A stretch of 63,728 nucleotides of DNA, the filler included, from Rhabdomonas costata (Eukaryota), in NCBI GenBank assembly GCA_019059605.1. It is 24 parts of 24 records of this genome, joined end to end, with 100 filler letters (N's around TTAATTAATTAA, not from the genome) between each part and the next. Parts side by side here need not be neighbours in the genome. Positions count along the whole stretch, not along the records: positions 13,321 to 15,873 come from JAHMHO010002858.1; 23 more parts are not named here. One strand, given 5' to 3'. The notes under the pieces are model-generated. The model did not search any database. It saw nothing but the letters and a program-made list of their open reading frames with translations, and was not told the origin of the DNA. Positions 99-50,170 of this stretch are shown piece after piece (within the stretch, counting starts at the first letter, position 1; each line of letters begins with the position of its first letter). The translations under genes were made by a program, and so were the position numbers.

Positions 99-2243
<2,145 letters not shown>

Positions 2244-2561
2244 GTCAGCTTTGTGTGGATGTGTATACTTGGCTTATTCATCCTGTATGTGGATTTGCAA
2301 TGGTAGGGTTTCTCAATTGTCAATTGAGCTTTGTGTCGACGTGTCCTTCTTCCCTCATCCAATGGGTGCTGTGATTGCTCCCGTTGATAATGGTTTTTAA
2401 TTCCCAGTAGCTACTGGGAGTATCGCTTTTGTTGAAAAGTTTGTGTTGTCTTTCGCTACTTCAACTCCGAGACATCCTTCCTCCCACTACCACTTCTTTT
2501 TAACAGAGCTCTCCTCCCAAGCTGGACTTTGGAATGTACTACGGAGCCGTTAACCCAAAAA

Positions 2562-5224: not shown

Positions 5225-6759
5225 CTTACCTCCCTGTTACCCCCANNNNNNNNNNNNNNNNNNNNNNNNNNNNNNNNNNNNNNNNNNNNTTAATTAATTA
5301 ANNNNNNNNNNNNNNNNNNNNNNNNNNNNNNNNNNNNNNNNNNNNGGTTTTTTGGGGTACCGGAAACATATAAAAAAAGATAAGAAAAAACAGCAGAGGC
5401 TCTTATCCATTTTTCACTTACTTTTCTTACCTTTACGGTGCATGTTGGTTCCTTGTTTCTGCAGTTACTCCCCAGCCTCCATTGCCGCGGAGGGGTCTGA
5501 TGGCAGCACTGTTGGAGTCTCGCCTTCGCCACATCAGGGCTCCAGGACTCTGGGTGAGCCGCTGCTGGAACAGCAGCCCTGCCCAGTTCCAGAGCAGGGG
5601 TCGGAGGACCCCGGCAACCAGCAGGAGATATACCGCACGCTCTGCCAGATCGGTCGCAATGAGCAGGTGCGATGCAGTGCGGTACCACAGAGTGCGGTTG
5701 CGGACGTGCAAGCCAATCTCCCCCCTCCATACCCTTAACAACTGCTGCACAACTTTGGAGGGTGTCCGGTTGCCGGTTGTAGGGTATTGCTTTGGGCCAT
5801 TTTTTGGTTGAGGGATACCACGTCCATTTATTCCAGTGAACTGCGGACTCTCCCCTCCCCCAAGTAGGGAAACCGGGCTACAATCGGCTCTCGCCCTTCC
5901 CATCCATTCACAAAACAAACGGGTGCATCCAAATCATTTTTCGATAATTGCCGATATGAACCTGCAGGTTTGGTTTCAAGTTTCCGTTCCTCCCAAAAAT
6001 CGAAATCCGGACGTACAAGAACGGACACGCCCAGAAGTCAGCGTACGCATCAGGAGCCGGAGGGGAAGCACACTGTCCTTGGATCTCAGGGTGCATGAAG
6101 AAGAAATTTTTTCTGCTTTCAGGTAATGGCTGGCCTCGACAAGCTCTTTCGATGCATGGGCCGGCCTTGGCTGCGGACTCAGTTCGCCGAGGCGTGGACT
6201 GCCCCGATTGAGAGACACACAGCGGAGACCCCGTGAGTGGTGGTGGTCTTCTTTTCTTGTCAACCTTTTCCGCACAGGTGGTGTGCCTTTCGACGCGCTA
6301 CCTTGAAACAGAATCTTTTGCTGTACATCTTAGCAGTTGCGCAACTCTGCTTTCCTTTGTTCTTTCGGAGCTTCAGAAAGGCGCATGACTGGCTGCGGTG
6401 GAAGGAATGAAAACCGAGACTTGGACGGTGGCGATTTCTTAGACCCAAATTGTTGTGCCCTTTGCAAATGTCACCGCTGAGCAAAGCCATCTTTTTGTCA
6501 GAGTGGTGCTTGCCACGGTTTGAAGAACTTTGCCCGAACTATTGTCTTAAATGAACGATGAACAATTTTCATTGAATTCGTACAAAAAAGACTGACAAAC
6601 GTTATGCAGGCGGACACATAAGGCACGAAACATGTCTGGCGCGAAAAGGGGAAACGTGGAAAGGCACTTCTCTTGCCCCCTTGAGGAGTTTTTTTTAGAG
6701 ACACAGCACCACAAAGGAAGGCACCGGGAGAGACGAGGGAAGGGCGATGGACAAACAAA

Positions 6760-8581: not shown

Positions 8582-9763
8582 TGCAATGAAACAAAAGGAA
8601 ATGCCTGCAGAATAACAAGGAAAACAGTTTCAGGTTCTCCCATTTCACCCTTCCAGCCGTCGACCGACCGACTCATTCACCGATTACCGTTCAAAACTAT
8701 GACCTTCTTGACCTTCCTTTCCATTGAAAAATGATGGCAGAAATCCGAGAAATCCTCTGAAATGAGGGCTCGATTGCCGATTTCCCTGTTCTTATTACTT
8801 ATTCGTTATTGCAAAACGGGGGGAAAAACGACGAGAAACCTTGATGACTCGTTCAGCTCGATTACAGTTCCGAGGAGAAAGACGGTGTTAATTATCTCCA
8901 ACTGCGAACGTCCAAGTTCATTCACGGAGACATGTCCGTGGTGCACCCTCTGCACCATTCCGCTTATGCAGCGGAGCGCACGCCAGCAGCGAGAGGCCTC
9001 GAAGCTCACGAGGGCACCCGGTGCAAGGGGCCCCGAAGCGAAGTGGTGAATTCGTAGGCTTGCCCGCAAACAGAGCATGCGCCTTGGTGAACCCTTGAAG
9101 CCCGTCTCCAAGAGACTGTGGAAGCGCCTTTCGGGCGCGGTGGCCAAAGGAACGGCGCGAGTGCTTCTTCAGGGCTTCACAGGTCAGTGAGTGAAGCGGC
9201 TTAAGGGTCAGTAGTTCCCCCTCCTTGTTGTGGTGTTGAACTCATCGTCCCATTGCTCTTTGGCCTCTTTATCTCTTTATATACCTTCTCTTTCTTGTGT
9301 AGCGTGGCTCGTCCTCAAGCGGACGGGCTATCTTGTCAAAAGGTTGTGTGTTGCACCTCGCCGTCTTGGGTTTGGAGGGACCGCTTTTGCAAGTTCTAAT
9401 AGTGTTCTGGGGGTGAGTTGGCCTTGTGTGTTAGCCTTTTGCTGTCCACAGTGGGTCTCCTTGCGTTTCATGCAAAAGCTGTGTTTCGGGACAAAAGACC
9501 CCAGGCCTGCTTCGGCTTGGCCCTCAGCGTCAATATGGTTATAAAAGCTGTTTGGTGCTGACTCCTGCTACTGCAAGAACTGTTGTGCCGCTGTGCTGTA
9601 AAAAATACTTCCGGTTTCGATTATCAAAAAGATGTTTCTTTCAAAAATATAAGTAATTTCCGGAGCTTATGCTGTGAAACTCAACTATCCCCTTCTCAAT
9701 GAGGTCCCCCATAATGTGCAAATGTGCAAATACATTGGTCCCCCCTCTCTGCACCCCTGTCAG

Positions 9764-10033
9764 CGAACTACTTCCAGCACGTGTACGGCCAGGGTGCTCC
9801 GATCCCCGAGCTGCGGGTGTACTCCCGGCTTCACGAGCGCTGCGGGTTGCACGCGCGGTGGCTCTCGGAGTACGCCCTGCTGCACGCTCAGGCCCTAGCC
9901 AGCCCGCACACTCATTCTTTTCTGCGGTACCTGTGCGAGCGTGGCTGTCACGGCCACGGGGACCGCAGCCTGGCAGTGCTCTCGGTGTTCATGATGGCCG
10001 TGCTCACCAAGCGGGCCTTTCTGTTGCACTCTG
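9764..10033 (+). CDS. Internal exon, putative fucosyltransferase-like glycosyltransferase
   Basis: AG/GT-bounded phase-1/phase-1 270-nt exon: ..FLRYLCERGCHGHGDRSLAVLSVFMMAVLTKRAFLL. This resembles the 'C.G.GDR...l...f..A.lt.R.fl' motif of FUT-like enzymes. Confidence 0.4.
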
Positions 10034-10660
10034 GTGTGGTGATGTGACATGCGCAAATTGTGGGTTGTGCCTGCTCAAGGGGGATGCTGCATGAAAAGTG
10101 AAGGGTGGGCTTCCAATGGCTTGAGAACAAAACCACAAGTACAGGTGTTCGGGAAGCGTCTGGGGTGCGGCACCACAAACAATTTACAAGGAACACAACT
10201 ACATGCGCTGCGTGGGGTCACCGAAGAAATTTACAAGAAGGAACGCGAGAAGAAATAGAACCGTAAAACAGTGCGATTAACGAAACAAAAGAAGGGCACT
10301 GTGTACAATTCTAAACTGAAAATTGCATTCGTCAGAAAAGCCAACCGACAATAAACCAGGGTGGGGGGCAGGGAAGGAAGAAGGAGGGGCGGAAATCCAT
10401 CCTCACCGTCCTGACCAACGACATGCAGCACGGCCAGCTTGATGCCGCCGTCGCCGTCACCCGGCGCGAGGATGCCCATCTGGAGGTGTTCTGCCTGGGC
10501 GTCGATCACACGCAAAGCGGCTATTACTATGCGGGCGCTTCGCGTGTGATCAACACCCCCNNNNNNNNNNNNNNNNNNNNNNNNNNNNNNNNNNNNNNNN
10601 NNNNTTAATTAATTAANNNNNNNNNNNNNNNNNNNNNNNNNNNNNNNNNNNNNNNNNNNN

Positions 10661-11086: not shown

Positions 11087-11495
11087 CGACGTCGGCTTCA
11101 TCTCATGTGTTTCATATTATTCACCGCATGTCCCTGATTCCAATTTCACCCTCGGAGGAGTAGGGGGGGTTCAGATATTCCGGAAACCGCGCTTCAGCCT
11201 CCAAACCCGAAAAGTACGTAAGCTAATCCTGGATTTGACAAGCAGGTCAATAGTGAAACTTAAGTGATTTTCTGAGCAGTCCCCTTTGTGCTGAAATTGG
11301 AAAAGTGCTGATTCATCAATGTTTGCATTCACACGGTGATGCACGGAATACAAAATCCTTTTGGTAGGTACTTGTTTTGGCTCTGTTTTCCTGCGGATTT
11401 GAGTTTCAACAGCATTTGAACCCTCTTCTGATATATGTATCACCAAAAAATCGGGCTGTGGGAAGATTTTCCGTTTCGTTTTGTTTTGTTTCAAG

Positions 11496-12968
11496 GACTA
11501 CGAGACCTACTTGATGAAACTGGCAGTGGAGAATGGTATTCCTGAGGCGATGATACGAGATTGCATGACGCCCAATCACCTGCCAAAGGTGGAGAAGATC
11601 GGTGCGTGGACCGTCCTCATCCTACGGCACACCCGTGGGGACGTGGTCCGGGACCCTAAAGTGATGCACACCATGCCCTCGCTGACCCACAGGCTGGTAC
11701 TGTTAATCTCGGAGCGCAGGGTTATCACCATCCGGAGGGTTGGGGCGTTGGATGACTTTCCAGAGGTGGCGAACCTGGTGAAAACTTGGGACGGCTCAGC
11801 GGCCATGAATGGTGTGGTGTTGTAGTTTCTGGACGACGTGGCAACGTCTTTTCATGACTTCCTCGCAGACGATATGCAGGTTTATGGCTTTGGGTTTCTT
11901 TATCTTTCTGTATCCCTTTAACCTTGTAATTGGCAAACCGCAGAAATGCGAGGGGTCCACATTGCCCTTCTTGTCATGGCCCGTCGACTCCCTCCCCCCT
12001 CCCCCGTGGAGGAGGGCCACCTCGAAGACTCCATCTTCGAGCGGGCGAGTGCATACACAACCTTTATTGCAAGGTTCTGCTAGGCATTATATATACTAGC
12101 AATAAACTAGAAGCACGAAGCAAGGGTGAAATGCATGGTGTTCTTGTAATGTCCTGGAATGGGAAGGCGTTTCAGTTGTGTGAAGTGTTCAGCCGGAACT
12201 GGCTGGGGGTGCTCTCGTTGCGGGGTGACCTCGAGCTGCCGGTGCGGGTGCGGAAGTGGGGGCAGCTGCTTCTCCTCCCAAATGGAATGGAGTTTAACAA
12301 CCGAAGCTGAACGGCGCTTATTGGAACAGGAGGATCAACGTTTCCTGTGTGGTAACGTGAGGACTGAAGCGTGCTACCTCGTTTCCTCCTCGTCCCCGTG
12401 GTCCACGAGACTATTGAACTCATTATCGTTGTCCGTTGTCCGATCCACAGTTGGCCCTTGGAGCGGCAACCCCTTTTTTGCTCTCCGTTAGGAGCTGGAG
12501 CAGCACGAGACCTTAGTGGATCTCCACATCACCAACGCGAAGCACACCCCCAGCACAGACATGGACCTTGTCTGGCGGCTCTACAAGATGCAGCGCCGGG
12601 TCACTGTGCACCGCCGCCTGATTGTGCTTACCAATGCCGTGGTGACCCAGTACACGGGCCAGGACCCTTTCTTCCAAAGGACTCGGGACAGCCTGCAGTC
12701 TGCGTTATACAACGTGGAGAACCTATACGAGAACATCAACAACCTGCTGAGCTTGCACCTCGCCCTTGTGGACAACCGCACCAACCAGTTCCTTTACGTG
12801 CTGACCTCGTTCAGTGTGGTATTCATCCCTATGACCTTCCTTGTGGGGTTTTTCGGGCAGAACTTCCACCTTCCAGAGTACGATTGGTCCCCGCACATCG
12901 CCCACGGCCTTCCTGTTGCTGTGCTTCTTGCCACGGTGTCGTGGCTGAAGATGAAGAAGTTTCTTTGA
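11496..12968 (+). CDS. CorA-family divalent cation transporter, partial; exons 11496-11879 and 12492-12968; in-frame TAG at 11823-11825
   Basis: N-domain motifs ..RDCMTPNHLPKVE.. and VITIRR, a coiled-coil stalk, NRTNQFLYVLTSFSVVFIPMTFLVGFFGQNF, a second TM helix and a basic tail ending at TGA. The phase-0 intron joins DDMQ|ELEQHE. Confidence 0.85.
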
Positions 12969-13372
12969 GTCTGGGCTGCTTTTGGCGAATTTTCGCTGGT
13001 GGAGGTTCTCACAGGAAAGAATGGAGGCGAGAATGCTGTTTATTGTCGATTCATTTTTTCTCTGTTTTGTTCGTCAGTGTATTATTTTTGCTGCCTGCAT
13101 TGGATCGGCCTGTAATTAAATTGGGTCGATTTTAGCCAGGTGGTGTTTTGACTTCGTATCACTCCACCCTCCTCACCCCTTTTGGCTGTAAATTCAGTTT
13201 TTTTTGTCGTTTTTTTGTCGNNNNNNNNNNNNNNNNNNNNNNNNNNNNNNNNNNNNNNNNNNNNTTAATTAATTAANNNNNNNNNNNNNNNNNNNNNNNN
13301 NNNNNNNNNNNNNNNNNNNNTTGTTGTTGTATAATTCGTCAAAGCTATCCTGTGTGGGCACTAGGCCGATGA

Positions 13373-15690
13373 CAACCGCCGCGTTGAAGGGGTGAGGCAC
13401 AAAGGCTCGGGAGGTATTGCTTGGGTTGTACTGCGCCTGTGTGTAGTTGACTCGGGGCTGGAAGCGGAAGCTCGTCGCAAAAGTCGAAAGGAAGCCCGGC
13501 GCGGGGGACTGGAAGAACGAGTTCATGACAAGGTTGGCTCCCAGACCCGATTCGTAAACCACAACAGGAATGTTGCAGCTTTGCTTGTCAAAGGGGTAGT
13601 GCCTGAAGTTCATCGAGCACGACAGAGTTCCCGTGATCCTCCGATACAGGATGCTCGTCGGAGGGTACGTTGAAAACGATGTGTCGTTGATACTCCCGTA
13701 GGTCATGAGAATGAACATCTCGTTCACCCCAGCTGAGGTTTCATCGGCCTAGTGCCCACACAGGATAGCTTTGACGAATTATGCAACAAGAGAAAACGTA
13801 AGAACCTCCATCAGCACCCTACACACGTCATTCAGATGAGAGCCATGTTTGGGGAACACGCAGGCGCGTGAGGGCAACAAGACTGCCACGAGTAAAAGTG
13901 GGACTTACCCCAGCACCGCTGTTTTGCGTGCGTCTGCAGCACCAGCCGTGCAGGTGCAGTGCCATTCAAAGCCTCGGTAACCCAAGCAATACGGTTTGGA
14001 ACAACCAAAAACTCAAATAAGCACAAGACATTCACATCCCGACATCGGTCATGAAAAAGGGTGAACGAAAGGGGAGGTCAGGAGGCTCTTGGAAAAAAGG
14101 CAACAATAAAGCATTGTTTGGTGCAAGGACACAGGGGTCAATTTTGAGGGGCACCTTCCCAGAAAATCCGAGAAAACCCCATTTGGAAGTCACGATATTC
14201 AGTATCAGGGTACGCTACCAGACAAGAATTATTGGGTAATATAGGTCAAAGTGAGAACTCCGTCAGCTAAAAAAACATCCATGGAAAAACGCCCCTTTTG
14301 AACTGTTAGGCAGCGGAAAACCGAGGTTTGTAGCCACACTTTGCTCTATAAGTCCGAAATCATGAACTTTAATGTACAGCGAACAAATTCTCTCCTTTGA
14401 GATGACGTGGGCAATATGATGTGACGCGGGTCACACCAAAGGGACATAGTTTTGTAAAAGGTTCACGGGACATCCAAAGAAAAAATCTCAGTAAATCCTA
14501 CGTCTGAAAAGGGCTGAAGAAACTGAAACGAAAACTCCAATCAGCTGCATTTTCCTTGACAACAACACATGCATTTATGCCGCGTTTACTTTTTACCGAC
14601 TGTTGTTGTGGGGATAAGCGTGATGAATAATCACGCTGTTACGGAACGTCAACATGCATTTCGCAGCAAAAGCTCTCTCACGAAATCTCGGCTACGCGGG
14701 CAATGTGAAGTTCTTGCTGGTGACCCGTGAACAGCATTGTCTTTGGTCAAGGAAAGAAAATGGTTGCGTCCCCACCTGAACAATCTGCCGCATCGTCGGG
14801 AACAACAGGTTTGGGTACCACATCTTATGCGGCAGCGCTGTGGGAAACCACAGCGAGAGTTGGTAGTCTGGAAAATTGTAGTCGATCGCATAATCGTCCT
14901 GCCATATTGCGTACACCTCCATGTCCACACTGAACTGCTGTGCTGACTGCTGAAGGGCGTAAACTCGATTCAGCACAACCGCGATGGTGAGATTGGCTTC
15001 CCCCGAAGTGAGAACTGCAGCTGTAAGAGAAACCGTATGCAAATGGAGTGCAGCAAGGCCTGCCAAGAGTATATAAACATAAGCAAAAAAAGATGAGCAA
15101 TGAGAAGGCTCTGTTGCGTTGGTGAGTGAGAAAAAATGCGTGAAAAAAGATACGAGCCTCAGCTTATCCTTTTTGTTACCTGCTATTTTCTTATCTTTTG
15201 GCGTATCTTTTGAACTGAGAGCCATCCTGGGTAAAGTACGAGGTATGTGGTGACTGCACTGTTCTGGTGGGTGGATGTGGTGATGGATGTGTGCACGCTA
15301 CTTCAAGCCGACCAAAGAAGTATTCTGGTGAGTTGCAGAGGCTTCAAAAAAAGACGAGAGGCCCCACATATCCTTGTTTACACACCGTTTTGATGTTTAC
15401 GATAGTGATGCTTCTCGCAAAGTTGCGAAGCTCGAAAAACGCACCCCCACCACCCCCACCAAAGAAAAGAACTGGAGAACGGAAAGCAACTGAGGCATAC
15501 GAGGAATCGATGCGTCGTAATCCCACTCCGCCAGATACTTTTCGAATAAAGTTTGGGTGGACTCAACAGCTGAGGCTTTTCTGAATGAGTGCTTCCGAAG
15601 TGCTTCCTGGGCTCGTTCCAAAACCAGCTCAGGGGACGCGTTACAAAACACGACAAACAGCAACAACGCGCTCAAAGTCACGCGCATCAT
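13373..15690 (-). CDS. Pentameric ligand-gated ion channel (Cys-loop receptor) subunit, extracellular domain; exons 15690-15501, 15020-14776, 13933-13909, 13732-~13373
   Basis: Signal peptide MMRVTLSALLLFVVFCNA, N-terminal helix LFEKYLAEWDYDASIPP, FSVDMEVYAIWQD, loop A MWYPNLLF and Cys-loop CSMNFRHYPFDKQSC (C-x13-C with YPFD). All three introns are GT-AG with consistent phases (1, 0, 1). The TM domain lies beyond the contig end. Confidence 0.88.
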
Positions 15691-18600
15691 TGTGGAGAAG
15701 AGCACAAAAGAAACAAGCACTAAATGAGCAGTTCGCACTTCGCGGAAGCAGGAGGATGCGAGCCAGAGGACGTTGACTCACAATGGATGAACTGACGAAC
15801 CTGCTGCCGCGTTTTTGCTTTTCTGGCACCATTTTGGCTCCTTCCGGAGCTGAATTCAGAGTCCCCACACCACNNNNNNNNNNNNNNNNNNNNNNNNNNN
15901 NNNNNNNNNNNNNNNNNTTAATTAATTAANNNNNNNNNNNNNNNNNNNNNNNNNNNNNNNNNNNNNNNNNNNNTCGGCGGGCCACGCCACTACGGCTCCC
16001 CAGATGGTGCGTTGCGCGGGGGTCAGGGGGCGCCGCGCCAGAGTGGCAGATGAGGCTGGTGGCACTCGCAACGCCAGCATCACAATGTCGCCGTCATTGG
16101 CGACCTTGGCCAACACGACCAGGGATTCCGTATGGCCAAACCAGGGTGGCGGAGGATACTCGGATGCGAAAAGCCATGGCCGCGCAAAGACGCCACGGAC
16201 CCCGCCCAATTCCTAATTGCCTTCACTGCCATGGACGTGGGCAGGTCCACACAAACCCTCAAAAGAGGTCACCATGACCTTGAATCCTGCGGAGCTGTGC
16301 AAGTGCCTGGACGCATACGTTATACGTCATAAACATTATTGTGATCTGCCGCATTTACCAGAGTGGACAAGGCTTTATGCCCAAAAGTTTGCGCAGAGAG
16401 GCGATTCTGAGTGCGCCGGGTGATGTAAACCTCAACACAGATCCGCGTCAGACCGTTCAGAGTTCGCGCCTGTAATTCAGAAATGTAGGTATGCAGCCAC
16501 TCGTTACGTAAACTGGTAGCCGGCGGAATTGCGCACGGATTTTCAGCGTGAAGCAGCGACTTGGAGGAAGGCATCAGCCCAGCGTGGAGGAGAGACTGCA
16601 GTGGTAGAATGGTGGAAAGCCTCCAGAGCGGGGTCATATGGGGTCACAAAAGCCAACATCCGCAGAAACACGCACCAGGGCACCACAATCTGAGAGGAGG
16701 GTGGCCAGCGCCGGTTGGGCGGCGAGCAAGAACCAGTCGGAAGCCGCTTCGATGGCCTCCAGGGGAATGGTGAACAGCACCACCACCGCCTCAACAACGC
16801 GATCCTGCCGGCTCAGCTCCAGCTCAACCATGTTTTTGAGCATGTAGAGATGATCAGGCAGCGCAATCAGGTGGCGCAGAAGGGCGCCCCGACCATAGGC
16901 CGACCCCAAGCATAAGTGGCGGCCTTGACATCACATTGGGATGATAATTTCTACAGCGTCGGAAAATATTACATGTTCTGACATGAATGCTATTAATTTC
17001 TGAGAGGTTCACACTTTCTTGATGAATTCTAGATAAACTTGATGTGATTAAAAGTGCTGTAACTCTGGCGGAATGCAAGAACTAATGCTAAAGGTTGGTG
17101 GCCTTGTTGGAAACGTGAGGCCTGGACATCAACCAAGTTGGATACCACGCTGAACTTCTGTGGTTGCCGAAGCCGATTGAAGTATCTATAACAGATGTAC
17201 ATTGCAATAAGTTTCTGCCTTTTCGTGCATAACAGAAGCGATTATAATCAGTAAATTTGCCTGAGGTATGAAGAAGAAGTCCCGTTTGTCGTCTTGTCTT
17301 TTCGTGCGCTTGCGCGTGTAAAAACTCAAACCCAACCACTCACACTTTAGAATGGCTAGCTGGAAGCACATCTAAATTGATAAGTGATTATAAAAATTAT
17401 AAAAATAAAGCTAGTTACGAGTGCATATTCTTTTAATTCCTAATGTAATCTTACCTTAAATTTCAAAACAGTATTGAAAAGTAGCTGACATAATTTCTTC
17501 GAATATAACTTTTTTAATACCCCGGCATGTTAAACTAAACACACTTCCTACACTTAAGAAAATGAAGCAATTAGCATAGACCAAATCAGTCAGTTACCTG
17601 ATTCTGGATGTGGACACCTTAAGCCAGAACACAAAAATAGCAGTCAATGCCATGGCCAAGAAGCAGTTCGAGAATACCAGCGACATGTTACAGCACGCGC
17701 GGTTATCGTGTGTAAATACGCGCGGTTTTCGTTTCAAGTACTGGGGCCCTTTAGCACAAAAATGCAGGAGGGGCTGCTATATACGCACAAGCAGCATGTT
17801 TTGCGTGCTTTCACGTTTCAATGGCCTAGCCAAACTCGACCAAAAGCAGCTTAGGATAAACGAACTTGCGGGGAGAAGAACCGAATTTACAAGCTTGCGG
17901 AGGCACCTCATGGCAGGGAAAGTTTCCGTGCGCGCTTGGTTTCCTTCCAAAACTCTGTAAAAAGCGCTTTGGCACGGATCGAAAACCCGGCAGGGTAATC
18001 CTAACGGATCGAGAAACAAGGAAGTAAGATCGACACATCGGCCAAAATGTTAGGGAAAGATAAACCCAATCAGTTCCGGGCAAGATTTCGACCACCGGGC
18101 ATGCGCGAGAAAGGCGGTATCTCTGTGGACACGTGTTCCGCCCGAAAGTAAAGGTCAATGACCGCCTGAAGATGCAACGATCAAAACAAAACCAGGCGAG
18201 GTGAGAAAACCAGGCTTCAACAAAGCACACCGCCGCCGAAAAAAACGGAGCGCTACACAGAAGGCGGGAAAAGACAACGGGCACAAGCTGGGAAACTGCA
18301 CAAAACAAAAGAAGCAACAACGGGAAGTAAACAGCGCGCAAGCAGAATGCTGCAGACAAGAACGGGCGCCAGAGTGTCTGGCCAGGGACAGCGCTTCCGG
18401 TTCACGGGAAACTTCGCATTTTGTTTTGAATTTTTGTAGTGCTTTTCTATCCGCCGAAATGGTCATCCATGGCTGGGAATAATAATGCGTCTTGATGCCT
18501 CCATTTCGGCGGATAGAAAAGCACCACAAAAANNNNNNNNNNNNNNNNNNNNNNNNNNNNNNNNNNNNNNNNNNNNTTAATTAATTAANNNNNNNNNNNN

Positions 18601-20849: not shown

Positions 20850-21359
20850 CTGAGAACCACGGATAAAAAAGTGTGCGCGACAAAAAGGAAAGCGACATAC
20901 CACTCATATGCGCGTGCAGGTGTACAATTTAGTGAAGATGGCGCTAATGGCATTCGTCCAACGAAAGCAACTGTTCAGTAAAGAAAAAAGAAGAAGCAAA
21001 GAAAAGGGCAAGGCAAAGCAGAATACAGGCCAAGTCCGTGGTTCTGCTTTTCTGTGCGAGTTAATGGCCACAAAAAGACACCTGTGGGGCAGCCAGCAAC
21101 GTCGGGATCCAAGGCCGACAACAAGCGACGGGAAGTCCAGATGCTCAATTTGTTCAAGCCGTGCATCCATTGCATCAGTTGCTTAACTAGCNNNNNNNNN
21201 NNNNNNNNNNNNNNNNNNNNNNNNNNNNNNNNNNNTTAATTAATTAANNNNNNNNNNNNNNNNNNNNNNNNNNNNNNNNNNNNNNNNNNNNCATGCGGAG
21301 CCCCCCCCCCGGGCAACTTACCTCGTGTTAGGGGGTGTTGTTTTCTTCATCCTGCAGCC

Positions 21360-22298
21360 ATGTTTTCTTTATTTGACTTGGAAACTTTGTGTGGTGATGA
21401 GGAGAAGCTAGAGGCTTTCTTATGCAAGTATGGTGTTGAGAGAAAAATCTCGAAGTGTCCTTGTGGTGGAAGTTTGAGCGATTCTTGTAAGGATGGCCCT
21501 TCCTCGTATCGGAGATGTTACAAATGTCGCAAGAAGATTTATGCCAAGGCTTCTTCTCTGCTGGAAGGCTCCCATCTTACCACTAAACAATGGCTCCACC
21601 TTGCATATTTCTGGGCTCATGACTGTGCTGGTGAGCGCAGTGTATCTATGCTGGGCTTGAGCAAGCAGACTGTTGCTGTGTGGTCCCAGAGGTTCAGGGT
21701 CTGCGTTATGAACTGGGAAGCTTCGCATTCCGATTCTTTGCCCTTCGGTGGAAAGGATAAGGAGGTCGAAGCGGATGAATGTGAGATCGGCAGAAAGAGA
21801 AAGGGCCTACATGGACATGATACTGATGTAAAAGGAGACTTTCGAGGCCTCTTTGAAAGGGAAACTGGTAGGATCTTTGTGGAGGCATATGATAAGCTGA
21901 AGAAGGGTGAAGATGACCGGAGGTTTGGCCCTCCCAATGTGCACGATGTCAGGCCCTTAGTGGACATGGTGGCTTCGGGTTCAATGCTTTATACTGATGG
22001 GGCTCGTGCGTATGAGTCCATTTGCAAGGAATACGGGATGAAATGGTCTTCGGTGGACCATTCAAGTGGTGAGTTTGTTCGCAAACAGAAGCTGTGGGGG
22101 AAGGTCCGCGTGGTTTCAACCCAGGGTATCGATGGAACCTGGGGGAGGCTAAAGACCTTCCTCCGGGCCAGAGGAGGAGTCTCCCCTGACCATTTGGAGT
22201 CCAATGTTAAGGAGTTTCAGTGGCGTAGGAACCTCAGTGATGACTCTGATGTGTTCTTTGCACTGCTGCAATGTATCAAGAACGGCTGCTTCCAGTGA
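21360..22298 (+). mobile_element. Merlin (IS1595/ISXO2-like) DNA transposon transposase, intact intronless 312-aa ORF
   Basis: N-terminal Zn ribbon CPCGG..RRCYKC, an HTH-like region, and catalytic motifs VEADECEI, LYTDGARAY, VDHSSGEFV, STQGIDGTWGRLK, HLESNVKEFQWRRN. TIRs could not be established. Confidence 0.9.
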
Positions 22299-30258: not shown

Positions 30259-32282
30259 CACTGGGTCGCTTGTAGGATGTTCACTCGTAATGGTTTGGCC
30301 CGCCGGCCCGGGTCACACAGAATGGTCGGCAGTATCAGAGGCTTTCAAACCCCCGTTAGTTTTTGTGATGGACTGGGGTTCTTGGCTGGAAAAACACGCA
30401 CCGTCGCAGATTCGGGGGAGGGGGTACCTTAAGGAAAGACCATACAAACCCTGAAGTTATATAAGCGTGTTTTCAACTCGCGCGCACACCCATACGTTTT
30501 CAGAAAGTAAAGAAAATATCTAATCAGTGCTCTGCCCTTTTCCCGCGGGACCGAGGCCACACGAAAGCACCACGACTCTCGTAACACCACTCCCTTCGCA
30601 TTACGGCCGAAACTTGTCGGAACCGGAACGGTTTGGACGAAGTTTTCTTGATTTTTAACTGCAACCCCCCTCTTAACAGCCGCAAAAGTCGATGAGGCGA
30701 TATGAACCTCCGGCGGCGGGGCCGCCAACACGGGCAAGTACCACGCGGGCTGTGTCGCAAAAAGAATAAAACACAGCCTGAAGCACCCCAAACGGTGCCG
30801 TGGAAGACATTGTGACCCTCGCGATGTGGAAGATCCCGGCGCAGATGCGGTTCATTCGGGACATGCAACCCCCAACCTTGTGGTACATCATGGCCGATCC
30901 TAAAGCCCCGGTCTCTGTCCAGGTCACCAAGGTGTTCCTCATTCCAGAGGAAGATAGCCAGCACATCAAGGTGTTTCCAGCGACTAGTTTCCAGAGGTTT
31001 CATACAGATTCCAGAGATCCGACATGGTGAGCGGAGACGGATCTCAGCCTCTCGTGAGACAGCTACTGGCCAAACGCTCGGTCAGGCTAGGCTACCCATC
31101 CACAGCTGGTAGAGAGAGCAGAGCAGAGTAGGGCCAGGTGAGAGACGGATGGCCGATAGAGTGACAGTGGTGGAAGACCCCGGGTGAGACAGAGAGCCAG
31201 GCCACGGGAGGCAGGCAGCATGGAAGGGGAATGCGTGCACACAACACGACTGCAGAGATTAAGGTGGTATGTTTTCGGAGTTTTTCAGAGGAAGAAGGAT
31301 GCACCCACAGTGTTTTTCCAGAGTTTTCACAGGTGAAAGAGACGAGGAGGCCGAGATTTCACAGGATTTTCACAGACAAGGCCTCAGGGGGTGCAGGCGG
31401 AGAAGACGGACAGTGTGGTGTGTTACACAGCGGCAGTTTGAAAGGTTATGGTCCCTTCTTTTGTCTATGATTTCAAATTTTACGTTAGGTGTTGAAGAAA
31501 TCCAAAAAGTCGTCAGATCGCTTGTTTTCCAGAGTGTTTTTCTCGTTATTTTCGCCTTTTGTTGTTACAGAGGTGCCCTAAAAGAACCACAGCAGAGCCG
31601 CAGGCCAGAGCCGAGCGGAGACCAGGAGGGCCATGCAGAGGTACAGAGGGCGGTGGGTTTGCAGAGCGTGAGGAATGGGGACGCTGTTGGTTACACAGGA
31701 CAGGGTGTGTGTGTGTGCAGTCGTGTGCCCCTTCCACATCCTTCGCTTTGGTTGGGAGATCGGGGAAAGGCATAAGCGGCGAGACCCGCCCAGCGGAACC
31801 CCTCCAAAAACCCAGAAGGTGTGAGCCCTAAGGCCCGACAATTCGNNNNNNNNNNNNNNNNNNNNNNNNNNNNNNNNNNNNNNNNNNNNTTAATTAATTA
31901 ANNNNNNNNNNNNNNNNNNNNNNNNNNNNNNNNNNNNNNNNNNNNTGTTTTGTGGTACACTTCTACGCTGACTTTGGGGATTTCCCCTGACAATTTCAAA
32001 GGAGCGCCAGCCCTCTTTGCGTTTTCTTTCTGGTTCTTTCAGCCCCTTTCAGCACAAGCTCCTATTTCTGACGTTTATGTGATTGTTTCACGTTTTCACA
32101 CACGCAAGCGACGGGAAGACAAGGAAACAAAGGGGTGACCTCAAGGCCGGTCCATCACCTTCTTCTTTGTAAGGAGATGGGAGGGGGAGGATGGGGTACT
32201 CACGGGGCAGCTACCAAAGAAGGGAGGGTACACACCACAACACTGCGGCAGCTGAGCATTTTTCTGTTCGTGCTGCACTCAG

Positions 32283-32494
32283 ATGCCGTGTACGCCGCGG
32301 CGGAGTCCCCGAAGGGGGAGCTTGGGGTGTACCTGCAGGGCGACGGCGACAGCCTCCCGCACCGTGCCCGGGTGCGCGCCCCGGGGTTCTTCCACCTCTC
32401 CGCGCTGCCGTACATGGTGCAGAACCTCCTGCTGCCCGACCTGGTCGCCGTGATCGGCACCATGGACATCGTGTTCGGCGAGGTCGACCGCTGA
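32283..32494 (+). CDS. NDUFS2: NADH dehydrogenase 49-kDa subunit (NDUFS2/Nad7), nuclear last exon
   Basis: After a CAG acceptor: AVYAAAESPKGELGVYLQGDGDSLPHRARVRAPGFFHLSAL..LLPDLVAVIGTMDIVFGEVDR*, the diagnostic Nad7 C-terminus, with very high GC3. Confidence 0.95.
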
Positions 32495-45237: not shown

Positions 45238-47774
45238 CACCCGTACTGAGTTTATCAAGGTTGTGTTGATCAGTTCGTCAAGCAGTCTCAGAAGGGATCT
45301 GACTGGTTCAATAGTAGCACCTTCAGAATCCGGCGTTTGTGGTTTTTGTTACCTATGGTAATCCCAGTTTTTTTTTTAAATAGAATGTAACAGATCAAGA
45401 CAGGGCAAGCACGCACAGACGGGGTACCAATATATTGCCATCGGGACGGCGCATCCCGCAAACCTTAGTGATGAGATAATTTGCATAAACAACACTTCAC
45501 ACAAGTAAATAAGCTGACATGGTGTCCGGTGAAGTAGCACGACCAAACAGAACCAACGATGCGCTTGGAAAGGGGAGCCCGCAGAGGCGCGGTCCCTATT
45601 TATCGGGAGTAGCTCAATCAAAGCCGCTGAGCAATAGAATTAAGTGGAGTAAACATAGGATGACAAACATCCCAGTTTAACTTTCAGATGGTCTTTGCTA
45701 TGAGCTTACGTCTTGCGGAATAGCTGCTAAGGATCCCGCTGTTCATTCTGCCGATGGCGATTGGCAACCTTGTGGAGTGCAAGGTCTCCGTGGACCGCCT
45801 GACCAGCTACTTCCAACTGCGGGAGAAGGACGAGATGGATTCTGGGGACCTGAAAAGCCCTGGGGTGTGGTTGTGTGTATATGGTTGTGATGGCGGACTA
45901 TGTATGTGTGTGTGGTGTGTGTGTGTGTGTGTTCCAGCGAGGCTTGCATTGCTTTGCTGCTTGATTTGGTCCTCCCCTTCACGGTATTCCTAACCTTGCT
46001 ACGGTTGGGTTTCAGGGGTGCATTAATATCATTGTCCAGCGTGCTGTCTCTCGACTCTGAATTGATGAATGACCCCGGACCCCGTTCTTCATACGGAAGG
46101 TTTGGCACTAGCATTAGCAAGGAGTCAATGGCCGTGGGCATTTGTCGCTTAGACGTCTTTTTTGGATGACTGCGGGCGTTTTTTTTTGCAGCGGCTGTGC
46201 CCAGCAGCTGGTACTGTCTCCTCTGTGATTCAACTGAGTCGTTTCCTGCCCGACAGCTCAGTTTGGTTCCCTCTCAGTCATCTCAGTCAGGAGCATTTTT
46301 CCAAATTTATACCCCCTGCTCGACGCGCGACGTTGCTCCCGCAAGTTCTGAAGGGACTACAAGGGATCTCTGGAATTGAACTAAGCAGCATCAGCGCGAA
46401 TGCGAACGCACGAACACAAAACAGACGCATGTCCGTCAACCGATTCTCCTTTATTCGGCGTTTCACTCCCCGCAGGTTCTGCTGGGGCACTGCGCCTTTC
46501 ACTGAGGCCGCATCGCCCTCCATCCACCCTGTTTTCCAAGAAGCGTCGAATCCCGCCACCAAATATCCTGCCCAGGCGGGTCCCATTGCTATTCCAGATT
46601 CGCAATCCGCAATCCTATGGGTCTCAACCGCTGCAACCCAAGGCTTGAGGCTCGAGGCTCGTTATCGCACGAGCAGGGCTGTAGCTGCTGCGCGGATGGC
46701 TCGTGCGATTCCTCACCTGTTGGACTCTTTGTGTGCTCCTTGGCGGGGTGAAGGTATTGTTTTTTATTTCACCCTTCCTCCGTGTTCCACGCTCTGCGTC
46801 GTATTCATGCGGTGGTTTGGATATGTTTGGATGCGTTTTTCTCGGTTGGAAAGCGGTCAATACGGGTCGGGTGAATGCTTTTCTTGCCCCGAAGTTTGAA
46901 TTAAGTACACGCACGCTGAAGTATTGAAAAGCGCAGTGGTGATCTCGGCATGGAATCTGGTGAGTGTGTTGAGAGCTGTGAGGTGCCGTTTCAGCTCGGT
47001 GTCTGAGGTCCGATGCACTACATTGGTTGCACAGTGCTTTGTGCTCAGTAAGAAAGAGCTTATTTATTTCACCCCATCCATGAGCGTGGTTGCGCGCTTT
47101 CCCTCCTTCGCCTCGTTTTTCCGGGAAATATGAATTTCTTTTTGTGCCCTAAAAAGGCCAAGGACGAGCGAGTGAAGGTTGTCAATGAGGTGCTGCAGGG
47201 GGTGGGTGATCAAGATGCAGGCCTGGGAGCGGAGGTTCCAGCAGAGGCTGGCGGAGCTGCGGGGCGTGGAGATCAGACACCAGCGGCGGTACTTCATGTG
47301 TCAGGTGTTGGAGTGGGAATTTGGGTGTGCCCTGGGTGATCCATCGGTTCTACTCGAACCGTTGAGTGCAGTTGTGAAAGACAGATAGGTGTTTTTTTAA
47401 CGCTTTTACTGCAGATGCTCTCAGCTCCTTCTGCATGGAGACCCTCCCCTCCTTTGTCTTTCATAGGCTCTCAGCAGTACAGTGATGTTCACAACTCCTC
47501 TAGCGGTGGCCGTGGTTTCCTTTGCTGCCTTTGTGCTGACGGGCAATGAGCTGAGCGTGTCCCGGGCGATGATGTCCATCCTCCTGTTCGAAGTGTGTGT
47601 GTTGGGAAGGCATACCGCGTGAAGCTAGACTCCTGCACCTCCTTATTCACCCGTACTGAGTTCATCAAGGTTGTGTTGATCAGTTCGTCAAGCAGTCTCA
47701 GAAGGGATCTGACTGGTTCAATAGTAGCACCTTCAGAATCCGGCGTTTGTGGTTTTTGTTACCTATGGTAATCC
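45238..47774 (+). repeat. 127-bp direct repeat at both contig ends (45238-45364 and 47648-47774)
   Basis: Identical except one substitution (GAGTTT vs GAGTTC); period 2410 bp. Confidence 0.95.
45724..47592 (+). pseudogene. ABCC/MRP-type ABC transporter TMD1 exons in permuted order: 45724-~45864 (third), 47157-47304 (first, frameshifted), 47467-47592 (second)
   Basis: AKDERVKVVNEVLQGV-fs-VIKMQAWE..CQ|ALSSTVMFTTPLAVAVVSFAAFVL..LLFE|LLRIPLFILPMAIGNLVECKVSVDRLTSYF are classic ABCC TMD1 motifs. Exon 47157-47304 is 148 nt, about 2 nt short at ~47202-47208. Confidence 0.82.
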
Positions 47775-48399: not shown

Positions 48400-50170
48400 C
48401 AGCCACGCGCTCTCGACACACTGCTGACCCAGCTCTTGTGTTTCCCTTTTACCCGACCTCTCCTTCTCTTGAGGGTGCAGGTTCCTCGTCGATAGCCCAA
48501 TGGAGGAGAGGGCGAAAACCTGGAAGTCGAGACGACTTGGCAGCAATGCTCATCATACTTGATGTGCTTGATTTGTGCCGCGCGGCCCAGCCCATATCCC
48601 AACGAATCGAACTCCGTCAACCCTGACGCACTCTGACGTCTACTGCCAGGGCTTCAGGCCCCTACCTGCAGGTCGTAGGCGACCGGCCAGCCCGATATCT
48701 CGCTGGACCTGACCCCCGCTGAGTGCTACCACGCGAGCCAGTGTGTCTGCCACGCGCTCATGGCGGGTCACGTGTGATGCACGCGGACATGTGACGGCGT
48801 AGTCTCCGTACACATCCATCCTGTCCCCGCAAGCAACAGGGTGAGGAAGGATGGGGAGGCAAAGCCTCCATTTTAAGAGCGACTGGAACAACTGGAACTC
48901 ACTCGGCTCGAAGGAGAGACAGAGAGACGGAGCGGGAGGGGCTGTAAGCCCCAACGCGGGCTTGAAATTGAAAAGATTGTCGGAAAGAAAAGACAGAGAC
49001 AGAAGAAAATCGGACCATTTCCTCTCTGCAACTGCGCCGATTCGTGGGACCACCGAAAGCAAAAATAACTATATTAATCGTTGCGGACAGTGCCAGCTTA
49101 CAGTTCTTTCTCTTATCAGTATGCAGGCCTGCAATGGGCCAAAAAGGGCCCTTGCAAGCCTGTGTGGAGGCAAAAAAAAAGGGCTCAAAGATACCCCAAA
49201 ATGGCCCTGAAATGGCCTCTAGCGTGCCTCCAAGCAAGAAGAGGCCCACTCCGGTGCCAGCATGAAGTACTCCTGGGCTCTACCCTTAGGTAGCTAAGCA
49301 GGCCCGGCCGAAAGCTTCGGCTCAGTATGCAGACCTGCAAAGGTCCAAAAAGTACACCCCGGCCCTTGAAAATTTTCCGCGTCGAAGTCGAAATCGAAAA
49401 TGCGATTAAAAGGGCCAAAATGGGATCTGGGAGGTGCCATATCTCGGCGTAGAGAAGGATTCGGAGGCCGGGAAGCGGCGAACCAACTCATCTCAGGAGC
49501 ACTACTATACCATCAAATATGAGCCCCAACCTGTCACTCTGGCTTGAGTTCTGAGGTCAATGTTGGGTCCGGGGTGCGGTCCGGTCCGGTCCGGGAGTGA
49601 CCATGGCGGATGTCACCCAGCGAGTAAGGAGAGGTTTTGGGTTTTGGGCCGAAGTAAGTGGCCTACTCCCCCCCCCCCATTTCCGATGAGGCCCCCGACG
49701 ATTGGTGAGGTTCCCGACGCCAGCTGAAGAAGCTAGATAGGCCCACCTGGTAGACCTCCAAAACAGCGATAAGAGAAAGAACTGTAACAAGGAGTAATAA
49801 CTATACTTAGTGTAAACATGTTTTCGATGGATCCACCATCCTCCTTTTTGTGGGCCTATGGTGGTAAGCCCGGCAGGATCTCTTTTATCTGGCTTATAAT
49901 ATAATTCAAGTCCATGCCAAAAACGCCTTCACTTCATTCCGTACACACGCTCACTTACCACCGTTCTCGTACAAGCCATGCCTCCCGCACTGCTGGCCCC
50001 TCTCTCACTTCGGCATGAACACTTCACTGACGCTTTCTCCGACCCCAACGTAGGCGCATAAACCCACACCGACGTCGGCCACCTCATTCACGCTTCTCGT
50101 GGCGTTATCTCGCCACTGGGCCTGGACCTGCGCGTCAACACACAACGAGAGCCTGTGGGTCTCAGTGTTT
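48400..50170 (-). mobile_element. Degenerate CRE-like non-LTR retrotransposon 3' region (CCHC + restriction-like endonuclease), interrupted by a ~1.1 kb insert
   Basis: LTAPPAPSLCLSFEPSEF..LKWRLCLP..CGDRMDVYGDYAVTCP..TRHERVADTLAR..GGQVQRD..RLRPA, then K..KY...C and FQVFALSSIG in shifted frames. An upstream piece, RLSLCVDAQVQAQW, lies near 50110-50160. Confidence 0.7.

Follow-up and report, generated by a model that had tools for sequence, protein, structure and literature searches.

We have identified the 5' part of a spliced eukaryotic gene whose product is supported, at the level of sequence, as the extracellular domain (ECD) of a true Cys-loop pLGIC, the type that carries a disulfide. We think it probable that this gene is nuclear and encodes one Cys-loop pLGIC subunit, from the putative signal peptide to most of the ligand-binding beta-sandwich, and that its owner is most likely a Euglena-related protist. 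The window, by which we mean the whole stretch of 63,728 nt that was analysed, consists of 24 contigs, each about 2.55 kb long and separate from the others, joined via artificial linkers of the form N44-TTAATTAATTAA-N44, and the gene lies on one of them (Table 1).

Table 1. Positions of the gene, its flanking repeat and a reference exon, counted along the window
Feature	Position	Strand	Remarks
pLGIC-bearing contig	13321..15873		2,553 bases; no physical link to window neighbours (linker map)
Exon 1	15501-15690	-	ATG 15690-15688; signal-peptide-like N-terminus; N-terminal helix region ending in Y-D-x-x-x-P; donor GTATGC at 15500
Exon 2	14776-15020	-	beta1 to loop A; W-x-D and WYPNLLF (14820-14800); acceptor TTACAG at 15021; donor GTGGGG at 14775
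Putative micro-exon, 25 nt	13909-13933	-	in phase; borders CTGCAG and GTAAGT; phase-1 link from exon 2 to last exon
Inverted repeat, arm 2, 49 nt	13741..13789		within intron, 9 nt upstream of last-exon acceptor
Last visible exon	13373 (about) to 13732	-	beta5' to beta10; Cys-loop, loops B, F and C; acceptor CCTCAG at 13733
Cys-loop CSMNFRHYPFDKQSC	13575-13619	-	two Cys with exactly 13 residues between; Y-P-F-D core
Inverted repeat, arm 1, 49 nt	13324..13372		contig end; reverse complement of intron sequence directly upstream of last exon
NDUFS2 exon	32282-32491		on another contig of the window; AG acceptor and stop codon

We regard the domain as a Cys-loop pLGIC ECD because of collinear Pfam matches, tblastn matches to an environmental relative (P0011), and profile scores set against shuffled controls. 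The Pfam scan with PF02931 (Neur_chan_LBD), which the first-pass annotation had named as a check on its proposal of an animal-style Cys-loop receptor, matched two exons collinearly: exon 2 over profile positions 26-89 (E 0.0032) and the last visible exon over positions 117-142 (E 1.1e-5). Taken singly, neither match reaches the 26-bit cut-off, the two scores being 25.4 and 17.4 bits. An independent LBD profile, derived from 5 unrelated LBD proteins, assigned scores of 60.3-69.9 bits to three alternative spliced models; 500 shuffles reached 4.4 bits at most. With P0011 as the query, tblastn returned the last exon at E 2e-13 (56% identity), exon 2 at E 1e-7 and a weak collinear match in exon 1. 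An LBD of the pLGIC superfamily is thus recognisable in the predicted protein. The PROSITE-type Cys-loop signature consists of two Cys 13 residues apart around [FY]-P-x-D; the last exon carries this signature, the disulfide is predicted, and both Cys (C38 and C52) and the P, F and D of the loop are invariant in alignment A3. An ATG and the sequence features on which the first-pass annotation had built its proposal, namely the hydrophobic signal-like N-terminus, W-x-D, WYPNLLF and the exact C-x13-C, are all present on the minus strand. The AlphaFold prediction for the last exon, from an 8-row alignment, had a mean pLDDT of 39.7, too low for use.

In exon 1, inspection of the sequence shows a hydrophobic N-terminus and a Y-D-x-x-x-P motif, and the segment aligns with helix 48-65 in the AlphaFold model of a second environmental relative, P0018, a model whose mean pLDDT is just 58. 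The blastp alignments to P0011 and P0018 start at model residues 41-44, inside exon 1, and cross the junction between exons 1 and 2. Exon 2 could also begin at 15014, by way of a second acceptor, CTGCAG, placed 6 nt further downstream; the start at 15020 scores better by 5.4 bits against P0011 and by 7.7 bits against P0018. The connection from exon 2 to the last exon can be drawn in several ways. The earlier proposal of four exons splicing in phase holds for the collinear exons and their order, and is unconfirmed for the use of the 25-nt micro-exon. The 1,043-nt gap contains 67 AG..GT candidates that are in phase and free of stops, this micro-exon among them, and four candidates (10, 25, 64 and 103 nt, starting at 13918, 13933, 13972 and 14011), again including it, have the donor GTAAGT at 13908 in common. 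Homology scores fail to separate these candidates. Joining exon 2 directly to an acceptor at GAG|ATG gives the top generic-profile score (69.9 bits) and loses the (A/S)-G-V motif common to P0011 and P0018, and extending exon 2 to a T|GTTCAC donor produces the longest loop of the models compared.

At its downstream end, the gene runs into a fold-back repeat. The two arms are 98% complementary, lie 368 nt apart and occur in just 2 copies in the window, where 0 are expected by chance; their mismatches gather at the extreme contig end, a distribution that fits an end artefact. The 49-nt fold-back is probably an artefact of assembly or amplification, and translation past 13373 is therefore untrustworthy. 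The repeat cuts the last-exon frame at about this position, a few residues short of the pre-M1 arginine of the homologues. Since the contig stops in the fold-back just before M1, no transmembrane domain is seen: none was found on the contig or elsewhere in the window, and tblastn with P0018 matched only the two ECD exons (E <= 1e-6), the rest having E > 2.

The same repeat raises the question of whether we are looking at a pseudogene fragment, dead or partial as a gene copy, that was truncated or rearranged and lost its 3' end at a real inverted duplication. The repeat brackets the last exon and homology is lost right at its arm, the transmembrane part is absent from the window, and exon 2 reaches the last exon without an unambiguous canonical connection, all of which such a copy would explain. 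We nevertheless judge it very unlikely, as the three homologous exons are all stop-free and the family-defining residues are all intact, including both Cys, Y-P-F-D and W-x-D. The GC3 of the exons exceeds the overall GC of their own contig, as for coding sequence under selection, the clustering of repeat mismatches fits an end artefact, and a whole intron-rich gene is not expected within 2.5 kb.

The relatives of the predicted protein help to place the gene and to suggest what the contig lacks. In a collection of 5.8 billion clusters, those closest to it are P0001 and P0018, two clusters of environmental proteins with 27-29% identity. The spliced model aligned by blastp to P0011 at E 1.5e-27 (29% over 245 columns) and to P0018 at E 2.3e-25 (28% over 230 columns), and both of these relatives pass the LBD cut-off of 26 bits (34.8 and 37.9 bits, respectively). 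P0018 is a full-length protein of 438 aa with four predicted transmembrane helices and a very short M3-M4 loop; its match to Neur_chan_memb is sub-threshold (23.7 bits versus 28.1), and its AlphaFold model shows four long C-terminal helices at low confidence (mean pLDDT 58, pTM 0.51). Foldseek on this low-confidence model placed glycine receptors first (E 8e-14, TMt 0.60), a result that we take as supportive only. Against solved structures, P0018 matched a pH-gated chloride channel at E 8e-15 and GlyR alpha1 at E 1.5e-13. By comparison with this closest full-length relative, we expect that the missing 3' exons of the window gene would encode M1-M4.

Alternatively, the product could be secreted and soluble, a ligand-binding protein of the AChBP type that lacks a channel domain. 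On the contig, nothing of the protein is seen beyond a putative signal peptide and an ECD, and the members of the P0001 cluster that reach the C-terminus (6 of 6) stop at one point, not far past the pre-M1 basic residues. An ORF that reads on into intron sequence at M1 would explain this common ending equally well, P0018 runs on into its four predicted helices, and soluble AChBP-type proteins are known only in a few animals; we consider a soluble product extremely unlikely and favour a channel subunit. Further searches for homologues gave 0 significant hits among 63 candidates with the last exon as query at 'longer' lengths, nothing beyond its own cluster with P0011 as query, and 0 confirmed among 195 and 69 pattern matches when metagenome contigs were scanned with alignment A2 and then with P0018. 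Separately, the clusters nearest to P0011 in a protein atlas were LBD proteins from animals and, in one case, from a haptophyte; they serve as leads only.

Among known receptors, sequence comparison places the window ECD closest to the anion-selective branch (GABA-A, glycine and pH-gated chloride receptors). A phmmer search of the PDB with the last exon gave GABA-A beta3 as the best match (E 3e-4), and the 60 matches listed comprise 50 anion-selective animal receptors, 9 GLIC variants and 1 nicotinic-type subunit; among these listed matches, E falls below 1e-3 in the first 29 only, all of them GABA-A beta. The signature of the anion-selective branch is of the P-A-R type at the cytoplasmic end of M2. 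M2 is absent from the window, and the PAR-type evidence comes from the relative P0018 only, in which the start of M2 reads PARV and aligns to the PARV of the pH-gated chloride channel.

Nicotinic alpha subunits are characterised by a loop-B Trp and a vicinal Cys-Cys; the last exon has no loop-B Trp, and its sole two Cys are the Cys-loop pair, which argues against a nicotinic alpha-type subunit, with which the gene shares the superfamily and the Cys-loop spacing. The first-pass annotation had read the missing Trp and Cys-Cys as a sign that the ligand may be new. This reading was not supported, as both are features of nicotinic alpha subunits. Among solved structures, the closest are those of GABA-A beta, GlyR and pH-gated chloride channels, and in the alignment with GABA-A beta3 both proteins have Tyr at the loop-B position. 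The Tyr is not conserved in P0011 or P0018, so it permits no statement about the ligand.

The source of the gene must be judged on an isolated contig. An exon of NDUFS2 on another contig has Euglena gracilis (8iuf_S2) as its best PDB match, at 101 bits and 48/69 identical residues (70%, hand count), against 77 bits and 40/69 identical residues (hand count) for mammals. This exon fits the first-pass description of the organism as a probable euglenid, an assignment that would stand on one marker, on 1 of 24 contigs and not on the pLGIC contig itself; with only 70% identity to E. gracilis, the organism is therefore not that species. The protein atlas gave only bacterial fragment clusters for a CorA exon elsewhere in the window, which is uninformative for taxon.

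We accordingly weighed whether the contig might carry the real gene of another eukaryote in the sample, be it prey, a co-cultured protist or some other contaminant. The contig is 1 of 24 unlinked ones, it bears no taxon marker, and a shared-repeat test found no repeats in common with the other 23; its exons have GC3 values of 0.59, 0.68 and 0.75, at or below the low edge of the 0.73-0.96 found in the 8 other cellular exons measured, and its sole relatives are environmental sequences of unnamed taxon. Set against these points, its composition is mid-range for the window (rank 12, 10 and 10 of 24 for 2-, 3- and 4-mers), as are its CpG and TpA ratios, and its layout of long GT-AG introns and short exons resembles that of the MAPK and NDUFS2 contigs. 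Both environmental clusters encode the entire ECD in a single uninterrupted ORF, whereas the window gene is intron-rich, so the contig does not simply derive from their organism. Nor is the product a typical animal receptor: its best match among 1.84 billion representatives has 39% identity (E 3.5e-7), with none above 39%, and this great distance makes ordinary animal contamination unlikely, as the first-pass annotation had concluded. The ground it gave for that conclusion, a splice style matching the rest of the window, is a weak one because the window consists of 24 unlinked contigs, in which all introns seen are plain GT-AG. Taken together, we consider a contaminant origin unlikely and prefer as owner the Euglena-related protist that appears to be the source of the remaining assembly. 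Rfam gave 0 matches in the whole window, and 6 further ORFs on the pLGIC contig (5 on the plus strand and 1 in another minus-strand frame) had no Pfam match near any family cut-off.

If the gene does encode a channel subunit, we would expect five subunits to assemble in the plasma membrane, where a small agonist (or pH) would act at the subunit interfaces, through loops A-C and D-F. The Cys-loop would then pass movement to the M2-M3 linker, and a probably chloride-permeable pore would open. Such a channel could let chemical cues from outside act on membrane potential and on flagellar or cell-shape behaviour. We know of no biological role for any protist Cys-loop receptor. Since motility and taxis are easily scored in euglenids, the function of a protist pLGIC would be testable there.

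Cys-loop receptors were long seen as an animal invention, and a handful of protist examples since 2016 suggest a much older origin. Metazoan-like Cys-loop receptors have been reported in four protist species (Jaiteh, Taly & Henin 2016, PMC4795631), so the kind of protein described here is not new and only the lineage may be; of the first-pass claim of a true Cys-loop channel in Discoba, the Cys-loop ECD stands and the novelty of kind does not. The text of that paper names Stramenopiles, Chlorophyta, Opisthokonta, Alveolata and Emiliania, and contains no instance of the words 'Euglenozoa', 'Excavata' or 'Naegleria'. The gene is possibly the first Cys-loop pLGIC in Euglenozoa. Our more specific proposal, that it is the first disulfide-bearing anionic-type pLGIC of Euglenozoa/Discoba and forms, with the P0001 and P0018 clusters, a small and highly divergent clade confined to protists, is a serious but tentative one. 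If true, it would place the GABA/glycine-receptor branch in another eukaryotic supergroup, arguing for a long pre-animal age or for moves between protists, and a free-living flagellate would possess a fast chemosensory chloride channel that is so far unexplored. A Euglena-like member would thus strengthen the scenario of early origin or protist-to-protist transfer for the anion-selective branch and widen the known range of protist Cys-loop channels. At present we have only part of the gene, on a contig that is linked to no other, and its value is that of a lead.

Compared with known systems, the window gene resembles the protist anionic-type Cys-loop pLGICs, as described in the text of PMC4795631, in its probable unicellular-eukaryote source, its C-x13-C loop and its metazoan-like ECD motifs. 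That text also mentions a three-residue signature; in the comparison with the protist clade, the anion-type signature at the M2 start belongs to the relative P0018. With prokaryotic GLIC and ELIC, the gene has the superfamily and the ECD fold in common, the GLIC variants being weak PDB matches (E 0.06-0.36). Prokaryotic pLGICs lack both the Cys pair and an N-terminal helix (in part after PMC4795631), whereas the window gene has both Cys, a putative signal peptide, the helix-region motif and spliceosomal introns. The animal anion-selective receptors (GABA-A beta, GlyR, the insect pH-gated chloride channel and GluCl) share its Cys-loop and the Y/F-P-x-D core, at an identity of about 20-35% over short stretches only. 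It differs from them as a probable protist gene in which no transmembrane domain is seen, in a longer insert from loop A to beta6, and in loop A itself, which reads W-Y-P-N-L-L-F in the window and W-x-P-D-x-F-F in the anionic-type matches P0003, P0008 and P0009.

Matches to an independent domain profile and in Pfam, phmmer and tblastn searches establish that the extracellular domain of the gene on the pLGIC contig is real, and thus bear out the Cys-loop receptor domain proposed in the first-pass annotation. Against a test profile of five ligand-binding domain (LBD) proteins from outside the P0001 cluster of environmental sequences, three alternative spliced models scored 60.3, 60.9 and 69.9 bits, whereas the best of 500 shuffles reached 4.4 bits; the last visible exon also contains CSMNFRHYPFDKQSC (13619-13575), in which exactly 13 residues separate two cysteines. 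The Pfam family Neur_chan_LBD (PF02931) matched exon 2 (E 0.0032, profile 26-89) and then, collinearly, the last exon (E 1.1e-5, profile 117-142), each match lying singly below the 26-bit cut-off; for exon 1 by itself Pfam gave no match. An exhaustive phmmer search of the last exon against 1.84 billion representative proteins returned only 10 matches at E <= 0.001, led by P0001 (E 3.5e-7, 39% identity), and seven of the eight matches scanned with Pfam (P0002 and P0007 were outside the scan) were Neur_chan_LBD proteins. P0004 was rejected as a relative, being an unrelated multi-domain protein by Pfam scan.

The contig's protein is very divergent, its sole above-chance relatives being two unnamed environmental clusters. 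P0001 leads a cluster of eight environmental sequences, the longest of which, P0011 (294 aa), carries the whole extracellular domain in one ORF and clears the Pfam LBD cut-off (34.8 bits over profile 5-215). When P0011 was searched against the contig with tblastn, it matched the last exon (E 2e-13, 56% identity over 41 residues) and exon 2 (E 1e-7), with a collinear weak match to exon 1 (E 6.4) amid many chance-level matches; its alignment to the spliced product (about 245 columns, E 1.5e-27, 29% identity) begins within exon 1 and spans the exon 1/2 junction. A profile search with the P0001 cluster and the window's exon recovered P0018 (E 6e-56), a full-length, single-member cluster of 438 aa named "hypothetical protein" at its source, to which the spliced model aligns at E 2.3e-25 and 28% identity. 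In Pfam, P0018 scores 37.9 bits for the LBD and 23.7 bits for Neur_chan_memb, under the 28.1 cut-off of the latter, and its low-confidence AlphaFold model (mean pLDDT 58, pTM 0.51) has a helix at the N terminus, a beta domain and four long helices. Foldseek on that low-confidence model placed glycine receptors best (E 8e-14, TMt 0.60) and GABA-A receptors next.

Coordinates of the pLGIC gene fragment and of other features in the window
Feature	Position	Strand	Details
pLGIC exon 1	ATG at 15690; donor GTATGC at 15500	-	Signal-peptide-like start, then helix-region motif
pLGIC exon 2	Acceptor 15021/15020 (TTACAG), or 6 nt on (CTGCAG, start 15014); donor GTGGGG at 14775	-	
Last pLGIC exon	Starts after CCTCAG at 13732	-	Carries the Cys-loop
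49-nt inverted repeat	13324-13372 vs 13741-13789		98% complementary; brackets last exon; one arm at contig end
Linkers	2562-2661, 5246-5345, ... 61072-61171		100 bases, N44-TTAATTAATTAA-N44
MAPK-like protein kinase, two exons	972-1082, 1998-2249	+	Intron ~900 nt, GT-AG borders
GT37-like (XG_FTase, xyloglucan fucosyltransferase) exon	9757-10044	+	E 2.3e-7, above cut-off
CorA-like Mg2+ transporter, two exons	11403-11825, 12492-12968	+	E 1.5e-5, 2.2e-22
ISXO2/IS1595-type DDE transposase	21294-22298	+	Intact 334-aa ORF; E 4.7e-8
NDUFS2 terminal exon	32282-32491	+	Pfam Complex1_49kDa E 2e-22; AG acceptor, stop codon; GC3 0.96
WD40-repeat exons	59380-59553, 60128-60361	+	Pfam WD40

The first 20 or so residues of exon 1 comprise one Arg, a 13-residue hydrophobic core and then small residues, the helix-region motif that follows ends in Y-D-x-x-x-P, and exon 2 contains W-x-D and WYPNLLF. 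For exon 2, the start at 15020 outscores that at 15014 by 5.4 bits against P0011 and 7.7 bits against P0018, and gives the homologues' spacing from the Y-D motif to the first strand. Some connector is needed downstream, because the acceptor at 13733/13732 takes one upstream base and the strong donor of exon 2 leaves none. That acceptor is favoured over a direct join to an inner GAG/ATG acceptor, since the (A/S)-G-V motif with which it opens the last exon is common to P0011 and P0018. The 25-nt micro-exon of the first-pass annotation (13933-13909) supplies the connecting base, in phase and with good borders, but its 5' border is one of several: the 1,043-nt interval between exon 2 and the last exon contains 67 AG..GT candidates that keep the phase and lack stops, and four of these, 10, 25, 64 and 103 nt long, use the sole GTAAGT donor, at 13908. 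The segment concerned is a loop, and alignment and profile scores do not separate the gene models; by hand count, only the 10-nt candidate among these four matches the spacing of both homologues from a conserved Arg after loop A to (A/S)-G-V. The connector is thus likely to be a short exon in phase 1 whose 3' end lies at 13909, with several candidates for its 5' border.

Homology to P0011 and P0018 ends at an arm of the inverted repeat, a few residues ahead of their pre-M1 basic residues, and no transmembrane exon was found on the contig or anywhere else in the window. The two arms are the only copies of the 49-nt repeat in the window and their mismatches sit at the very contig end; the repeat probably arose as an artefact, by fold-back during assembly or amplification, but it may instead be a real inverted duplication, in which case the arms would pair in the pre-mRNA around the last pLGIC exon.

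Comparison with solved structures points to the anionic branch. Among the 60 PDB matches listed for the last exon, 50 are anion-selective animal receptors, nine are GLIC variants and one is nicotinic-type, with E < 1e-3 only for the top 29, every one of them a GABA-A beta subunit. The best solved relative of P0018 by sequence is a pH-gated chloride channel (E 8e-15), whose PARV aligns to the PARV at the start of M2 in P0018, followed by GlyR alpha1 and GABA-A subunits. We conclude that the contig holds a real, intron-rich gene fragment for a pLGIC subunit of the Cys-loop type, closest to the anionic-type branch. The first-pass annotation had taken the missing loop-B Trp and vicinal Cys pair as signs that the ligand may be new; their absence is expected outside nicotinic alpha subunits, and it does not indicate an exotic ligand, because the Tyr of V-V-V-Y in the last exon pairs with the Tyr ending I-E-S-Y in GABA-A beta3, which we take to be the agonist-contacting Tyr of loop B. 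The V-V-V-Y Tyr is not kept in P0011 or P0018.

The window does not represent a single molecule: its 63,728 bases are 24 pieces of 2,552-2,584 bases each, and arguments from neighbouring genes in these concatenated contigs are therefore invalid. The gene fragment lies wholly on one piece (13321-15873, GC 0.487), and the six other ORFs tested on that piece, across both strands, gave no Pfam family match near any cut-off. The remaining contigs hold spliced genes of eukaryotic type, the MAPK-like exons showing the assembly's architecture of long introns and short exons. The sole taxon marker found in the window is the NDUFS2 exon, for which 8iuf_S2 was best by 24 bits (101 bits) among 52 solved complex-I-type sequences, with identity of 48/69 (about 70%) against 40/69 for the mammalian protein by hand count. 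According to the excerpted text of PMC10884005, 8IUF is the Euglena gracilis supercomplex and the mitochondrial genome of that species codes for just seven proteins, consistent with a nuclear location of NDUFS2; an identity of 70% shows that the source is not E. gracilis itself. An NDUFS2 gene that is nuclear, contains an intron and is closest to that of Euglena fits a euglenid. Evidence from the pLGIC contig itself is indirect: its composition is mid-range (rank 12, 10 and 10 of 24 for 2-, 3- and 4-mers), it has no repeats in common with other contigs of the window, and GC3 is 0.59-0.75 in its exons, 0.73-0.96 in eight other cellular exons measured and 0.53 in the transposase. We consider it quite likely that the contig belongs to the host of the assembly, and the gene's owner is probably a Euglena-related protist. 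As a fragment on an unlinked contig, with its transmembrane half missing and a small exon of candidate status, the gene amounts to no more than a good lead.

A protist Cys-loop pLGIC is of a known kind, and it is the lineage that may be new. In the excerpted text of Jaiteh, Taly and Henin 2016 (PMC4795631), protist pLGICs are described in 22 genera, with a bona fide Cys-loop in four protist species, which group with animal receptors in cationic-type and anionic-type clades; the text names Stramenopiles, Chlorophyta, Opisthokonta, Alveolata and Emiliania, and the words "Euglenozoa", "Excavata" and "Naegleria" are absent from that text. Kinetoplastid genomes fall outside the 2016 inventory according to passages of a 2022 paper (PMC9366347), and those of a 2024 diatom survey (PMC11085791) give the same picture as that inventory. 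Within the titles and abstract openings returned by a full-text literature search, nothing on topic concerned a Cys-loop or ligand-gated ion channel in Euglena or Euglenozoa.

Several other features of the window merit description. Since its GC3 lies below that of the cellular exons, the transposase ORF may be a mobile element within the eukaryotic assembly. In the C-terminal CorA-like exon, the loop behind the first TM helix reads G-Q-N, the signature of the CorA family being G-M-N, and XG_FTase/GT37 is mainly a plant family. Two short ORF pieces (45739-45933 and 47203-47340, plus strand) resemble an ABCC-type ABC transporter by eye and have no Pfam match. The only sequence common to different contigs is a 50-nt stretch (1283-1332 and 49243-49291; 88% identity, E 4e-10), which may be a dispersed repeat.
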